Origin: Thermostichus sp. DRC_bins_24
GTDB lineage: Bacteria > Cyanobacteriota > Cyanobacteriia > Thermostichales > Thermostichaceae
DNA length: 10,844 bases
Assembly (NCBI GenBank): GCA_039794845.1
Contig: JAUQVK010000031.1
Coordinates: forward strand, 1 to 10,844
Direction: 5' to 3'
Below are positions 3,001-9,000 of the stretch, in pieces (positions within the stretch are counted from its first letter, which is position 1; each line of letters opens with the position of its first letter). The position numbers were made by a program.

Positions 3001-6000
3001 GACGGCTACTTCTGGGTGATGGGTCGGGTGGACGATGTCATCAGTGTGGCGGGTCATCGCCTCGGCACCATGGAGTTGGAATCTGCCTTGGTGTCTCATC
3101 CTGCCGTAGCCGAAGCGGCTGTGGTGGGTCGCCCCGATGAAATCAAGGGGGAAGCGATTGTGGCCTTTGTGATTTTGTCGGAGGGCCGGGAGGGCAGCGA
3201 GCCCCTGCGCCAGGAGCTGATGCAACACGTGGTCACGGAAATTGGGGCGATTGCCCGACCCAGTGAGATCCGCTTCACGGAGGCTTTGCCCAAAACCCGT
3301 TCCGGCAAGATCATGCGGCGCCTGCTCCGGGATTTGGCCGCCGGTTCCGGCATTAGCGGCGATACCTCCACCCTGGAGGATCGGGGGGTGCTGGAACGGT
3401 TGCGCCAAGGAGTGTAATGCAAGACTTTTCGTAGAATGGAGCATTTTTCCTGCCTTCTAACTCTCTGAATGCCCTCCTTGATGAAGCAGATGGGATACAT
3501 CATTGAAGTTGATTTTGGCTTGAATGACTTGTGCTAGAAATAAGCCTATGATTGAATCGAAGCTATTTCGGATCCCAATGCTCGGTCCTGATGATGTCTC
3601 TGGGCTCAAGGCATTGGTTGACCAAGGAGTCATCAATCCCGAAGAAGTTATCGCGATTTTAGGGAAAACAGAGGGGAATGGTTGTGTAAACGACTTTAGT
3701 CGTGGATTTTCCACTCTTGCATTCAGAAGCTACCTCCAAGAGATAACGGGTAAATCTCACAGTGAACTTAGTAAGCAAGTTGCCTTTGTCATGTCTGGAG
3801 GCACTGAAGGTGTCATGTCTCCTCATGCGGTTGTGTTTACTAATCGGGTAAAGAATAATACACTTCAAGATGAGAAATCCTTCGTGGCAGTATCTGGCTT
3901 TACCCGAGAGTTTCTTCCTGAAGAAATTGGTACTAAATCAATGGTATCCGAGGTTGCAAAGTCTGTCATTAAGTTGATGGATAGCGCAGGCATCGACGAT
4001 CCTGAAGATGTTCATTTCGTTCAAGTTAAGTGTCCCCTTTTAACCTCTGAGCGGATTAACGACGCCCACACCCGTGGTAAACAAGTTGTTACCCATGACA
4101 CTTATAAATCAATGGCTTATTCTAGAGCTGCATCAGCTTTGGGAGTAGGTGTAGCAACAAAGGAGCTAAAAGAGGCCGATATTACTGAACAGGATATTGG
4201 TCATAACTGGAGCTTGTACTCATCGGTTGCATCAACCTCTGCAGGGATCGAATTGATGAATTGTGAGCTTATTTTAATGGGAAATTCACGACTGGGATCT
4301 GGAGAGTATTGGATCGGTCATGGGGTTATGCAAGACAGTATAGATCTTCAGGCCGTTTTGAGAACCCTAAAAAATGCAGGGCTGAATTTTGAGGAGTTGC
4401 CCAATCGAAGGGAACTAAATCGAATCGTAAGTGTCTTTGCCAAAGCGGAAATTAGCTCTACAGGGATCGTGCGCAACCGACGTACAACTGCGTTAACAGA
4501 CTCTGATATTAACCATACCCGCCATGCTCGTGCAGTAGTCAATGCTGTGATTGCTTCGGTGGTGGGCGATCCGATGATCTATGTATCAGGAGGTGCGGAA
4601 CACCAGGGCCCGGATGGAGGTGGCCCGATCGCGGTCATCGTTAGCCAATGAAATCTCATTGAAACATTCCTGTAACCAGCGAATAGGCGCACTAAGATGG
4701 GGACATTGAATCCTTTGTTTTGGGCTTTTCATGTTGCCTCTGGATCCCGCTCTCTATTTTGACCACAGCGCTACCACCCCCCCTCGGCCCGAGGTGATCG
4801 AGGCGATGCAAAGGGCCATGCAGGAGAGCTGGGGCAATCCCTCCAGTTTGCACGGCTGGGGAGAACGGGCGGCTCTGGCCATGGAACGGGCGCGGCAACA
4901 GGTGGCGGATCTGCTCAATTGTGAGCCGGAGTCGTTGGTGTTCACCTCGGGAGGCACCGAGTCCAATAATCTCGCCCTGTTTGGGGTTGCCCAAGGCTAC
5001 CGGACGCCCCAACATCTGATCATTTCTGCTGTTGAACATTCCTCGGTGGAGAATGCTGCCCGTCAGCTGGAATCTCAGGGGTGGCAGGTGACTCGATTGC
5101 CCGTAGATCCAGCCGGACAGGTGGACCCGCAGGCCTTGGCGCAGGCTTTGCAGCCCAACACCGTCTTGGTCTCGATCCTGCACGGCCAAAACGAAGTGGG
5201 ATCCCTGCAACCGATTGCCGAACTGGGCCGTCTTTGCCGAGAGGCGGGGGTGCTCTTTCACAGCGATGCCGTGCAGACGGTGGGGCGGATCCCGTTGGAT
5301 CTTTCGGAACTGCCCATCGATATGCTCTCCCTTTCGGGCCATAAGCTCTACGGGCCCCAGGGGGTAGGAGCCTTGTATGTGCGTGCGGGGGTGGAGTTGC
5401 GACCTCTGCTGCGGGGGGGCGGGCAAGAACGGCGTCTGCGCTCCGGTACCCAAGGGATCCCTGGGATCGTCGGTTTGGGGGTGGCAGCGGCTTTGGCCGC
5501 CCAGGAATTGCCGCAAGAAACAGCTCGTCTGCGCCGATTGCAGAGCCATTTGGCAAGTTTGCTGGTCAGTGTGCCGGAGTTATTGCCGACGGGGCCGTTG
5601 GATCTGGAGCAGCGGTTGCCCCATCACCTCAGCTACTGCAGCGAAAGGATCCCGGGCAATGTGTGGGTGCAGGGTATGAGCCGCCAGGGTATCGCCATCA
5701 GCGCCGGATCCGCCTGTAGCAGTGGCCAGTTGATCCCCAGTCGCATTCTCTTGGCCATGGGCTATTCAGAAGCAGAGGCGTTGGGGTCGATTCGCCTCAG
5801 CCTTGGCAAGGCCACCACCTTGGCGGCGGTTGAGTCTGTAGCCCGTGGTTTGCGGGCGTTGATCCCTTCGGCTTCGGCATCCGGATGGGATGGTGCAGCT
5901 CAACCCTTGTTGGTCGGCTCCCGTCGTGTCAGCGGGCCAGAAGCATAGTGCCTTGTGGGCTGGGTTTGGTTAAGGTATTGGAGAGTTACAGGGCTGGTCG

Positions 6001-9000
6001 TCATGGCTGAGATGAGTCCGTATCAGGTGTTGGGAATCAGCGAAGAAGCCTCTTTTGAGGAGATTCAGTCGGCGCGGGAGCAACTCCTAGCCAACTTAAG
6101 CGCCGATGAACAGCAGCAGGAGCGGGTGGAGCAAGCCTACGATGCCATCCTGATGCAGCGCCTACGCCTGCGCAAAGAGGGCAAAATCGCCGTTCCCGAC
6201 CGCATTCGTTACGCCGAACAACGGGCGGCCAACCCTGAGCCGGAGCTGAGTGTGCCCCCACCCGCCAGCAAAACCCCCCGTTGGGTCGACCGTTGGCTGG
6301 ATACGCCTTCTACCACCGATGCCCTTCTGCCCGCGGCCCTGTTGGGGGGGTTAATCGGCTGGGTCGTCTTGGCTCCTGATGAGTATCCTTCGCTGCAACT
6401 GGCGCTGGGGTTGATGGCCTGTATCTATTTTCTGTACCGCAAAGAGCGCCGCTTTGTTCGTTCCTTTCTCTTGGCCTTGGCGGGCCTGAGCCTGGGGCTG
6501 TTGTTGGCCTATGGCATTGCCATTCCCCTCACGGGCGGCGATGCCCCCGGAGCGCTGTTGGTGGGGATCACCTTTGGGGTGATGTGGTTGGTGACCAGTT
6601 TTTTGCGCTAGCTGTGGGCTTTGATCAGGGCGGCCAATTTGCGCCGCATCAGGATCCCGGGTTTATCCGCCAGCATGTGTTGTTCGGCCTCGAGGTTGAG
6701 GGGTACATCCGGGTGGGTGGTCTCTAAAATATCCCGATCCTCGGCGGCCACGGCCCGATTAAAGCGGAACACCGCATCGGCATCTACCCCAGCCGGGTCA
6801 TCGTTGCGCATGAAAAAGTGGGTAATTTGCGAGGCCGTATCGTCAATGGGGGTGGCAGACATGAAGATCAAGGTAACCAAGCCATTCGGATAGGCAACCC
6901 TGGCCCGATAGGTAAAGGGCAACATCCAGTTTTTCTCGTAAATGCGTAGGGTACGCTCCTCCGGGATCCCGACATTTTGCCGTTGCAGGGGGTTGTTTTT
7001 CACCGGCACGGTGGTGTGGGTGCGGATCCCGTCTTCCAGCTCGATGAGCTCAAAGGAGGCGGGCACCGGATTTTCCGTATCGCCAAAGGTGCCGGTGTGA
7101 ACAATGCTGAAGTGGGCATTGTCGAAGACATTTTCCATCAATCGCAGGCCAGCACAGTCCCAGCGCTCGTTGTAGGTATGCACCCGCCAAAACTGCGGAT
7201 CCTCCACCTCCGGCACCGCCGGAATATCCGCCAAAGGCCGATCCGACAAACACACCCAGACGTAGCCGTAGCGCTCTTGGGCCAAAAAGGCCGGCACCTT
7301 GTAGCTGGCCGGGATCCGTTCCTCGGGTCGGAGTTGCGGCACCTTTACACAGGATCCCTGACGGTTAAATTCCCAGCCGTGATAAGGACACTGAATTTGC
7401 CCCTGGCAGACCTTGCCCTGAGAGAGGCGAGCGGTGCGATGGCAGCAGCGATCCAACATAGCCGCCGGCCGCCCCGCTGCATCCAACCACAACACCAACT
7501 TCTCCCCCAAAAGCTGAAAGGGTTGTGGCCTTTGCCGAAGTGCTTCCAGGGGTAAGGTGGAATACCAAAAGCGGCGCAAGACCGGTTCCTGGGTTACCCG
7601 CATAGTTCAGGCCCTAAATGAATTTGCCCTCAACGTATCAGCTCAGCAGAACCAGTCCGGTAGTGGGCACTACGATATCAGGTATGCTTTGCAAGAAAAA
7701 ACAGACTTACATTCGTTGTACCCTCTGGGCCAGGAAAATTGACAACAGGTTGTCCCGCATGCACAAGGGATCCAGCCTACACTAGCGGTGGTGGTATCTG
7801 TTTGGGGATCATGCTGGAAGGCAGGTCTAGGGGTGGGTTATCCCGGTTCGCAGCAGCGGGTCGCAGGTCAGTGCCGAGAAACATCCCCCTAGAGGCGGAC
7901 CAGAAGGGCCAGCGTCCCACCCAGCAGCGCCGACGCAGAGGCTCATGGCTTGCTTCTCAAGGGATCCATGGGCAATGGGGGGCAGGCTTGAGGTGGATTT
8001 TGGGAAAGCGGATCCCGACGAGCCGGCAACTGGACTTCCGCACCTGGATGACCGGATTGGTTCTGGTGATCGCCCTGTTTCTGACGGGGGTACGCCTGGT
8101 TTACCTGCAGCACCAACAGGCACCCATGTTGCAGGCACGGGCCCAAGCCCAACAACGCGCCCAGTTACGACCCTTCATTCCCCGCCGTTCTATTTTGGAT
8201 CGTCACTCCATCGCCAAGCAGCAGGCGGAACTGTTGGCGGTTGATCGCCCGGTTTATACGCTTTGGGCCCATCCCCGCCTGTTTGGCAGACGCACCCCAC
8301 AGGAGATTGCCGCGGCCTTGGCTCCGCTGTTGCGTCGTCCGGTGGAGCAACTGACGGAACAGCTATCGGCCCATCATCGTGCTGTGCGGGTGGAGCGCTG
8401 GGTATCGCAGGAGGTGGCGGATCAAATTCAGGCTTTGTACCTGGATGGGTTGGAATTGGTGAGCGAGCGGCAACGCATTTACCCACAAAAAGAGATGGCC
8501 GCCGAAGTGGTGGGCTATGTGGATCTGGATCATCAAGGGCAAGCCGGGTTGGAATATTCCCAACAGGGATTAATGGAGCGAACCGTTCAGCCTGTTACGA
8601 TTCCCCGCGATGGCTATGGACAGCTGTTGGCCGCGGAAGTGCCGGAAGGCTTGCTGCAATCTCGAGAGACAGTGTTGCAACTGACCCTGGATATGCGCTT
8701 GCAACGGGCCGCCCGCGCTGCTCTGAAAACCCAACTGCAACGATTTCAAGCGCTGCGGGGCACAGTGATTATTCTGCAGCCGCAAACGGGAGAAATTTTG
8801 GCTTTGGTAAGTGAGCCCACCTACGACCCCAACCGCTATTTCGAGTTTGATCCGGGCCTGTTTCGCAACTGGGCGGTGACGGATTTGTACGAGCCGGGAT
8901 CCACCTTCAAACCAATCAACATCGCCATTGGTCTGGATGCTGGGGCCTTCAGAGCAGATGAACGGGTATACGACGAAGGCCGGATCATGATCGGTCAGTG

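Follow-up and report, generated by a model that had tools for sequence, protein, structure and literature searches.

Oxygenase and binding-protein genes with predicted NtcA promoters suggest scavenging of purine and pteridine nitrogen in Thermostichus sp. DRC_bins_24

The window analysed here, a stretch of 10,844 nt (contig JAUQVK010000031.1) from the genome of Thermostichus sp. DRC_bins_24 (G000 in the following), encodes a Rieske oxygenase and a cyanuric acid amidohydrolase (Table 1). It raises the question whether both belong to a genome-wide kit for taking nitrogen from ring compounds, and on which compounds the Rieske enzyme may act. The survey's finding had counted about 70 kit genes; the present check comprises 61 genes with our own gene calls.

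Table 1. Genes and predicted promoter elements of the window
Feature	Positions	Strand	Remarks
Cyanuric acid amidohydrolase (AtzD family)	3548..4651	+	NF052395 above cut-off; 6BUM
IscS/NifS-type cysteine desulfurase	4731..5948	+	housekeeping neighbour, outside the kit
CPP1-like membrane protein	6003..6611	+	housekeeping, convergent with the Rieske gene, outside the kit
Rieske non-haem iron monooxygenase, 331 aa	6608..7603	-	Pfam Rieske and VanA_C
-10 element (TA-N3-T) of the Rieske promoter	7632..7637	-	22 nt downstream of the NtcA box
Predicted NtcA box (GTA-N8-TAC) of the Rieske promoter	7660..7673	-	kept in G010

The window Rieske enzyme features the Rieske cluster ligands and the 2-His-1-Asp iron site of an NdmA-type N-demethylase, with all metal ligands intact (C53, H55, C72, H75; D161, H164, H169, D289), and its structure model (pLDDT 85) shows TM values of 0.76-0.80 to GxtA, SxtT and NdmA. 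The designation 'NdmA-like N-demethylases' can nevertheless not be upheld as stated: NdmA is the top sequence match in the PDB (128 bits), but GxtA ties with 127 bits, GxtA and SxtT rank above NdmA in Foldseek (best TM 0.80) and an annotated HpxD is equally near (30-31%). Identities to NdmA, GxtA/SxtT and HpxD amount to 26-31%, none being clearly closest. The methylxanthine N-demethylases NdmA and NdmB have the same fold (TM 0.77-0.79), but are only 28-29% identical, and no reductase or formaldehyde genes lie beside the window gene. GxtA and SxtT of cyanobacterial paralytic shellfish toxin pathways, the best structural matches, perform C-H hydroxylation of a purine-like ring; the G000 Rieske enzymes differ from them in sequence (26-28% identity) and in their catabolic context, with no biosynthetic cluster observed around any paralogue. 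In our trees the window enzyme belongs to a genus-only trio with the C69 and C103 copies, and only G010 among 40 relatives has an orthologue. The trio retains Asn282 in common with NdmA, and HpxD has Asn at this position, too. Pocket positions differ among the G000 paralogues, and the window enzyme has Ala and Val at the positions of NdmA Phe286 and Phe168, residues that we assume to have a role in NdmA. Neither a dedicated PDR-type reductase for Rieske enzymes nor an HpxE-like reductase was found in G000, nor was the formaldehyde dehydrogenase FrmA, which is present in 1 of 12 genus genomes. These missing genes are a weak test, since ferredoxin and tetrahydrofolate could serve, and N-demethylation by the kit Rieske enzymes is possible.

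Most of the inventory was reproduced. G000 holds seven close and one distant intact Rieske paralogue plus a broken one, six intact and one broken 6V42-like flavoprotein, four 2OG-oxygenases (DIOX_N) plus a fragment, and 12 NMT1 binders (13 at E<=1.5e-15, minus one SsuA); Bmp binders number six to seven, the seventh match being weak. Flavoprotein counts again came to 7, 5, 5 and 2 in the clade, with a single copy in every one of the other eight genus genomes. The family's likeness to the flavin oxygenase 6V42/6V43 (folate catabolism) stands as well, with sequence and fold matches (39% identity, TM 0.86) well above other VAO-type enzymes (next match 17%; earlier values 41%, 0.88 and 18%); the open-access literature searched names no substrate for 6V42/6V43. 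The substrate-based names fared less well. The 'RibY-like' binders gave no RibY match among the NCBIfam models and in the PDB only weak ones, to 4NMY and the ThiY-type 3IX1; five of them share 50-53% identity with binding proteins from xanthine riboswitch loci. For the 'thymine-7-hydroxylase-like' enzymes, a PDB search with one of the four paralogues placed T7H second (164 bits) after 9OVH (171 bits); two of the paralogues share 51-53% identity with one riboswitch-locus enzyme. RutA, RutB and RutC are the best matches of the presumed Rut proteins but remain below the NCBIfam cut-offs. A nucleoside hydrolase is present, as is a DUF1688 protein, which we take to be of the URC4 family.

The claim that these families are expanded and dispersed in one clade had to be narrowed. 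Other genera of the same family (G015, G018, G021, G022) hold two to four close Rieske copies, and of the two hydroxylase copies in G005, the low end of the reported range of 2-4, one contains a stop. The kit's oxygenase and binding-protein genes are scattered across 31 contigs, but dispersal is no special feature: single-gene units make up 39 of the 61 kit genes, compared with 1975 of all 3109 called genes. Whether copies were gained or lost, previously left unsettled, is now partly settled by the trees, which point to gain by duplication together with older subfamilies and, likely, one transfer. The 6V42-like gene is single-copy in 27 of 29 non-genus relatives, and the five extra copies of G000, from duplication and the one probable transfer, carry NtcA boxes, which the ancestral copy lacks.

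The regulatory claim was confirmed in its main part, and the NtcA signal exceeds the one first reported. The survey had reported a strict NtcA box in 15/66 kit promoters and 120/2487 others (odds ratio 5.8, p 9e-7). With our gene calls the values are 15/57 and 111/2361 (odds ratio 7.2, p 8e-8). Throughout, the p values overstate significance, since related genomes are not independent. The length- and GC-matched mean is 3.2, and wrong spacings yield 0-1 of the 57 promoters. A box followed by a -10 element at 21-23 nt occurs in 19 of 57 kit promoters but only in 31 of 2361 others (matched permutation: mean 0.8, maximum 6), with the spacer peaking at 22 nt (12 cases) and 23 nt (6 cases; controls 0-2/57). 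Among 18 blind-clustered paralogue families the Rieske family ranks first for this full promoter (6/8). TAN3T lies 21-23 nt downstream of GTAN8TAC at the window Rieske gene and at 7/9 Rieske units, an arrangement that is retained in all 13 genus orthologues of the six close paralogues other than C37; C37 shows it in 0/5. The G010 orthologue keeps the window box despite changes within N8, and T, A and T of the -10 element with an altered middle. The same architecture precedes genes that we take, from their N-termini, to be glnA, ntcA and nirA-like. By class, box and -10 element are found in 12/20 oxygenases, 5/18 binders and 1/12 hydrolases (p 0.15); the NtcA signal is confined to oxygenases and binders and does not extend to hydrolases, and the promoter scan found no strict box in front of the window cyanurate hydrolase. 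Kit promoters share the architecture of the cyanobacterial NtcA regulon, in which the box is centred near -41.5 from the start site (PMC5714215), a rule that predicts a start of the window Rieske transcript near 7625; what sets G000 apart is that 19 of its 50 such promoters serve ring scavenging.

Gene context in other bacteria points to purines. We collected 79 Rieske-family loci (45 non-cyanobacterial, 34 cyanobacterial) and scanned the 45 for riboswitches. The xanthine riboswitch RF03054 (NMT1 motif) was detected in 26, in nine of them within 200 nt of the Rieske gene, and not in the other 19. It is described as an OFF switch for genes upstream of xanthine and urate; it responds to the demethylated product but rejects analogues methylated at N1, N3 or N7. 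According to PMC7373994, the functions of the regulated enzymes are not established. An OFF switch by xanthine fits a methylxanthine N-demethylase equally. Across the 79 loci the Rieske gene is accompanied by NMT1 binders (32), ABC parts (33-34), amidohydrolases (29), 2OG-oxygenases (12), 6V42-like genes (9) and PRK07583-type deaminases (8). The proteobacterial regulon (PMC7373994) has the Rieske, DIOX_N 2OG-oxygenase, NMT1, ABC, amidohydrolase and deaminase families in common with G000, and about 20 kit genes have a counterpart there of at least 45% identity (45-57%), the two nearest amidohydrolases reaching only about 30%. G000 differs in its predicted NtcA promoters, its scattered and multiplied genes and the absence of RF03054 (no hit; 14 controls were also silent, though the model matched in other loci). 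A pteridine arm of the kit is supported by the 6V42-like flavoproteins, whose family is also represented in a Ramlibacter riboswitch operon (L137), and by the PRK07583 deaminase beside them in other genomes, directly adjacent in G033. In Cupriavidus, lumazine is broken down by way of xanthine (PMC12391406).

A more definite assignment can be proposed for the C37 paralogue. Its subfamily, marked by Glu159, lies beside HpxO, HIUase, OHCU or PuuE genes in 9/28 non-genus cyanobacterial loci, against 0/17. Eleven of 18 genomes with hpxO have no molybdo-hydroxylase; ten of these possess HpxD (4) or a Glu159 enzyme (7), both occurring in one, and the eleventh is 87% complete. In other cyanobacteria the subfamily seems to replace xanthine dehydrogenase or HpxD. 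Orthology of the C37/window family to HpxD was rejected, since the two form separate clades and differ in motif (EGF.D versus EN.FD). HpxDE of the Klebsiella hpx genes (PMC13751858) is likewise a Rieske monooxygenase, and the Glu159 subfamily shares its association with hpxO, HIUase, OHCU decarboxylase, PuuE and purine permeases; it is only 27-31% identical, and other cyanobacteria encode genuine HpxD orthologues. For the C37 paralogue we regard the role of a molybdenum-independent (hypo)xanthine hydroxylase, analogous to HpxD, as most likely. Urate-gene linkage and complementarity with xanthine dehydrogenase are found for the C37 subfamily only and not for the window clade. The window enzyme, a duplicate restricted to the genus and altered in its pocket, most likely hydroxylates another purine or pteridine. 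The route through urate has a gap because HpxO, uricase, HIU hydrolase and OHCU decarboxylase were all absent from G000 in a search that did not extend to PuuD and HpyO; OHCU decarboxylase and HpxO are missing from all 12 genus genomes.

All four members of the AtzD/TrtA/BiuH/AtzE pathway are present in G000, here spread over four contigs; triuret and cyanurate arise by oxidation of urate (PMC7948467). BiuH exceeds its NCBIfam cut-off (421.8 versus 370 bits) and TrtA matches 6XIX best (309 bits versus 217 for BiuH); a full-length allophanate hydrolase was not found in G000, only two C-terminal-domain proteins. The window cyanurate hydrolase scores 521.7 bits against the NF052395 cut-off of 360, has 6BUM as best PDB match (E 4e-137) and is nearer to AtzD than to barbiturase (460 versus 300 bits). 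With a GC3 of 0.40 versus 0.67 for the genome (z -4.3), it was probably inserted only recently between acs and the gene for cysteine desulfurase, a location shared by G010. Its reported occurrence in 3 of 12 genus genomes was not borne out: one of the 11 others has an orthologue (G010, 90%), and the G008 match (41%) is of another subfamily below the cut-off. G015 holds a relative of 72% identity.

On balance we consider it somewhat probable that the kit is a nitrogen-starvation regulon which recovers nitrogen from purines and pteridines as well as from what their oxidation yields. From the genes, their promoters, context and trees we infer substrates, NtcA binding, expression and electron donor as follows. 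NtcA activated by 2-oxoglutarate would bind the box near -41.5 and turn on scattered single oxygenase and binder genes; NMT1- and Bmp-type binders would supply common ABC permeases, and deaminases would release ammonia. Rieske enzymes, presumably reduced by host ferredoxin, 2OG-oxygenases and 6V42-like flavoenzymes would oxidise the rings towards xanthine and urate, a direction proposed because of the riboswitch and urate-gene context. For the last steps, ring-opened products could pass either to PuuE, allantoate-type amidohydrolases and urease or to the set of TrtA, cyanurate hydrolase, AtzE and BiuH. The same module would be governed by a product-sensing xanthine riboswitch in Proteobacteria and have been rewired to NtcA in cyanobacteria. 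One multiplied oxygenase (a 2OG-, 6V42-like or Rieske paralogue such as the window enzyme) might even be a new urate- or xanthine-cleaving enzyme feeding allantoin or triuret and cyanurate, with the genus oxidising purines and pteridines to urate although it has none of the urate enzymes searched for, an extension that we regard as unlikely. A 2OG-oxygenase gene directly upstream of trtA in G006 is a single adjacency of this kind within the genus.

Most Rieske paralogues, the window enzyme included, might instead be position-specific N-demethylases that, as NdmA and NdmB do, yield xanthine, here from methylated purines that RNA turnover and DNA alkylation supply. Many riboswitch hosts probably already have xanthine dehydrogenase, so that a second hydroxylase would be redundant, and the top PDB match, the trio's Asn282, the variable pockets and the ligand preference of the riboswitch (PMC7373994) point the same way. 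We still hold this to be rather unlikely: GxtA equals NdmA in sequence score and surpasses it in structural match, HpxD shares the Asn, FrmA was not found in G000, no formaldehyde-handling family is among the neighbours recurring in at least 3 of the 79 loci, and the Glu159 subfamily acts like a urate-forming enzyme.

Distinctly less probable is a mainly pteridine pathway, in which a deaminase yields lumazines, the Rieske enzymes substitute for a molybdenum lumazine dehydrogenase by hydroxylating C6/C7, and the ring is then contracted or opened by flavoenzymes. The title of 6V42, the loci joining Rieske genes with 6V42-like genes or deaminases, the G033 arrangement and lumazine degradation via xanthine in Cupriavidus (PMC12391406) agree with it; however, such contexts occur mostly in alphaproteobacterial branches far from the window clade, in cyanobacteria the Rieske loci carry urate genes and purine permeases, and the literature searched gave no 6V42/6V43 substrate. 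It is very improbable that there is no single pathway and NtcA gathered unrelated genes for pyrimidines, s-triazines, biuret and other heteroaromatics, the window Rieske enzyme using a non-purine. The Rut, DUF1688 and nucleoside hydrolase genes would fit, as would a G000 Bmp with a counterpart in the biuret/triuret operon of G013, G017 and G039, the low-GC cyanurate hydrolase without a box and a G025 locus joining Rieske, NMT1, acetamidase and a non-AtzD ring-opening hydrolase; the roughly 20 kit genes resembling riboswitch-locus genes argue against it. For the hydrolases this explanation is partly true.

If the preferred reading, a regulon for purine and pteridine nitrogen, is correct, these mat-forming thermophilic cyanobacteria are predicted to reuse the nitrogen of nucleobases and pterins to an extent that we did not find described in the open-access literature searched. 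With this genome, eight paralogues of a widespread Rieske family become available, probably heat-tolerant ones; PMC7373994 leaves the function of that family open. Among the eight is a candidate for a second molybdenum-free xanthine hydroxylase in cyanobacteria. The same module appears under a product-sensing riboswitch in one phylum and under predicted NtcA control in another, with the site on duplicates and absent from the ancestral copy. A new urate- or xanthine-cleaving enzyme, if it exists, would be the first enzymatic source of triuret and cyanurate, and with the missing urate step their natural source becomes testable in a culturable genus.

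The window, contig C31 of the 3.5 Mb, 57% GC genome of Thermostichus sp. DRC_bins_24 (G000), carries in this order rodA, acs, a cyanuric acid hydrolase, a cysteine desulfurase, a CPP1-like gene, a Rieske oxygenase and ftsI, according to the 3109 genes called in this analysis. Only the cyanuric acid hydrolase and the Rieske oxygenase within the flagged span 3548–7603 belong to the kit of genes for obtaining nitrogen from ring compounds. A physical link between the two was ruled out, since they lie on opposite strands with two housekeeping genes between them, a layout common only to the genus relative G010. 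The nearest named record of the Rieske protein among the matches listed comes from a Thermostichus MAG (91% identity). With a GC3 of 0.40, the cyanurate hydrolase gene seems to have been acquired late. Contigs from one RNA run gave no usable coverage of the two kit genes. No match to the CPP1-like gene was found in the PDB, and a sigma-70 scan of positions 3300–8100 added nothing. A 19-base block between the NtcA box of the Rieske gene and ftsI is possibly a second regulator site or a piece of the ftsI promoter.

Kit genes and promoter elements in the window
Feature	Position	Strand	Remark
Cyanuric acid hydrolase	3548–4651	+	kit gene
Rieske oxygenase	6608–7603	-	kit gene
-10 element, Rieske promoter	7632–7637		kept in G010
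NtcA box, Rieske promoter	7660–7673		kept in G010
19-base block	7687–7705		conserved with G010 amid diverged DNA

The inventory counts of the survey were reproduced apart from small corrections. Close Rieske copies number seven in G000, six in G004, five intact in G010, three intact and two partial in G008, two in G006 and one each in G005 and G011, with zero in the other five genus genomes; four genomes from the same family but outside the genus have 2–4 each, and 18 genomes of other families at most two each. The flavoprotein resembling 6V42/6V43, of which 6V43 binds lumazine, is present in 39 of 41 genomes and nearly always as a single copy, so that it counts as a cyanobacterial housekeeping family in which just the additional copies call for an explanation. 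Dispersal, regarded by the survey as a feature of the kit, was ruled out as a special trait, as single-gene units account for 64% of kit genes and likewise for 64% of all G000 genes. The biuret operon is intact in three relatives (G013, G017 and G039) and its G000 counterpart is broken up across three contigs, for which reason one G000 Bmp protein is better read as a predicted biuret/triuret binder.

Quick trees without bootstrap were calculated for the Rieske and flavoprotein families. The hypothesis of one Rieske expansion across the whole genus was dropped, since the genus paralogues fail to group together in a quick tree of 55 rows (AU p 0.002). Relatives of the paralogues on C37, C44 and C86 occur in other families. 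Those on C31 (the window), C69 and C103 group into a trio confined to the genus and read as local duplication; its SH-aLRT support is 98 when the long G040 row is left out and 95 in the large tree, in which G040 is the next to join (94). Among the flavoproteins, C101 represents vertical descent. A clade restricted to the family (97) unites C35, C46, C69 and C89 with the orthologues of the broken copy, and C74 clusters with an enzyme from a Ramlibacter riboswitch operon (100, on long branches); NtcA boxes precede 8 of 13 extra-copy rows and 0 of 13 vertical rows. The broken 6V42-like gene (locus L011, G000:C89 about 33560–33950) is disrupted by two copies of a ~70-base repeat of short tandem units, and G004 and G010 each keep an intact orthologue. 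Remnants at L230:112–312 and L029:3238–3402 correspond to a hydantoin/allantoin-racemase-like gene and a fifth 2OG-oxygenase; together with a broken Rieske copy on C101 they indicate that the kit is also being lost.

For the motif count the kit was defined mostly by Pfam family, with 10 genes added by hand and 10 family hits judged housekeeping or unrelated (glcD/murB-type flavoproteins, urease, two dihydroorotases, TAXI, SsuA and nitrate-type binders, a weak seventh Bmp) removed before the count. The strict box GTAN8TAC, a consensus described together with the -41.5 position in the accessible text of PMC5714215, was found in 15 of 57 kit promoters versus 111 of 2361 others, and control spacings of 6, 7, 9 or 10 in place of N8 gave 0–1 of 57. 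The survey's claim of an NtcA regulon was strengthened by a sharper test, a box in which no more than one inner mismatch is tolerated, with TAN3T downstream: such predicted sites occur in 19/57 kit promoters versus 31/2361 others (17/49 without the hand-added genes), with spacers of 22 nt in 12 cases and 23 nt in six, and 20000 length- and GC-matched promoter draws averaged 0.8 such sites and peaked at 6. When all proteins were clustered blindly and 18 families ranked by NtcA promoters, Rieske, NMT1 and flavoprotein families took ranks 1–3. The site is retained, with drifting inner bases, in 13/13 genus orthologues of six Rieske paralogues and absent from 5/5 C37 orthologues. Hydrolases show no enrichment (1/12 promoters with the full architecture), and no NtcA box was found in the cyanurate hydrolase promoter or in 55 non-cyanobacterial Rieske rows, many of which sit within operons. 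A dispersed intergenic repeat with a perfect GTAN8TAC (C26, C83, C89, C91, C101, C106, C107, C115) inflates the background of strict scans. Outside the kit, the full architecture stands at C13:38172, C107:3676, C85:32846, C14:3915 and C84:32037, at a deaminase-like amidohydrolase, peptide-type ABC units (one beside puuE) and two phosphonate-type binders.

Neither sequence nor structure singles out NdmA, after which the survey had labelled the Rieske enzymes: the window protein scores 128 bits against NdmA and 127 against GxtA, and Foldseek places GxtA/SxtT first, all at TM 0.76–0.80. No NCBIfam model names the family, and the ESM Atlas returned generic Rieske clusters only. The name HpxD, given by its source annotation to a 54% identical homologue (P0027), was not accepted because annotated HpxD proteins are just 31% identical and branch apart; they share 30–31% identity with the window Rieske, and a quick tree of 145 rows places the family in its own clade of 133 rows, separate from HpxD. 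The surrounding genes are much more informative. Among 79 loci from the best 80 of 591 Rieske matches, the neighbours are NMT1 binders (32), ABC parts (33–34), amidohydrolases (29), 2OG-oxygenases (12), 6V42-like enzymes (9), guanine-deaminase-fold proteins (9), PRK07583-type deaminases (8), xanthine permeases (7) and HpxO (6). An Rfam scan of all 45 non-cyanobacterial loci among them detected a xanthine riboswitch in 26, in nine of these at most 200 nt from the Rieske gene. This riboswitch has xanthine and urate as ligands, does not accept methylated analogues and switches genes off, and the functions of the dioxygenases under its control are not established according to the accessible text of PMC7373994. 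G000 proteins are 46–51% (Rieske), 50–53% (five NMT1) and 51–53% (two 2OG-oxygenases) identical to counterparts in the riboswitch loci scanned here, as are 57% (C92 ABC pair), 61% (creatininase), 70% (RutB-like hydrolase) and 74% (deaminase) of the residues of further G000 proteins; its two main amidohydrolases reach just 30–31%. A term search of the accessible text of PMC9600594 returned no mention of purines, xanthine, Rieske or biuret.

G000 possesses PuuE, two allantoate-type amidohydrolases, urease, AtzE, TrtA, BiuH, the cyanurate hydrolase and, with a score under the cut-off, an XdhA-like fused molybdo-enzyme (L222:241–3021; 927 aa, 2Fe-2S and molybdenum-binding, no adjacent FAD subunit, in 5/12 genus genomes). 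A search for HpxO, uricase, HIU hydrolase and OHCU decarboxylase, with PuuD and HpyO outside its scope, found none in G000, and HpxO and OHCU decarboxylase in 0/12 genus genomes. Urate oxidation requires an enzyme or reactive oxygen. The two last steps after it, those of HIU hydrolase and OHCU decarboxylase, also proceed spontaneously (PMC12623156, accessible text) and would be faster when hot. Chemical oxidation of urate yields triuret and cyanurate, two compounds whose natural source is given as unknown in the accessible text of PMC7948467. A second ring-opening amidohydrolase subfamily (L075, L172, L175), present in eight relatives, 38–41% identical to the window cyanurate hydrolase and under the AtzD cut-off, adjoins a PyrE-like phosphoribosyltransferase, an NMT1 binder and either a Rieske or a 2OG-oxygenase and perhaps serves oxidised-pyrimidine salvage. 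A 735-aa phosphoketolase-like protein far under the XFP cut-offs (L017:4958–7162, G000:C103:14957) is encoded with trtA on one side and genes for a RutB-like hydrolase and a cupin on the other, and follows a 2OG-oxygenase in G005 and G006. An agmatinase-family gene with a HypA-like neighbour (L231:205–1743) presumably resembles the cyanobacterial guanidine hydrolase unit.

Rieske enzymes that have Glu where position 159 of the window enzyme aligns (in G000, the C37 paralogue) adjoin HpxO, HIU hydrolase, OHCU decarboxylase or PuuE in 9/28 non-genus cyanobacterial loci, versus 0/17 for rows without Glu159 (p 0.009, inflated by kin). Of 18 relatives with hpxO, 11 have no molybdo-hydroxylase; four of these carry true HpxD and seven a Glu159 enzyme, one genome belonging to both groups, and the sole genome with neither is 87% complete. 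Because of these neighbours and this co-occurrence, the Glu159 enzyme probably makes urate. The window Rieske has Val159, Asn282 and Ala286 and no urate-gene neighbour of the HpxO, HIU hydrolase, OHCU decarboxylase or PuuE kind; for paralogues such as this one, N-demethylation is the main rival to the oxidation of purines and pteridines towards xanthine and urate.

All parts of the kit belong to known kinds, and no description of its expansion, its NtcA rewiring or the missing urate step was found in the open-access literature searched. The expanded kit itself is confirmed. Of the substrates that the survey had assigned to it, methylated and pteridine N-heterocycles, the term methylated should be dropped, and the Rieske gene context and the riboswitches point to purines and pteridines converging on xanthine and urate.
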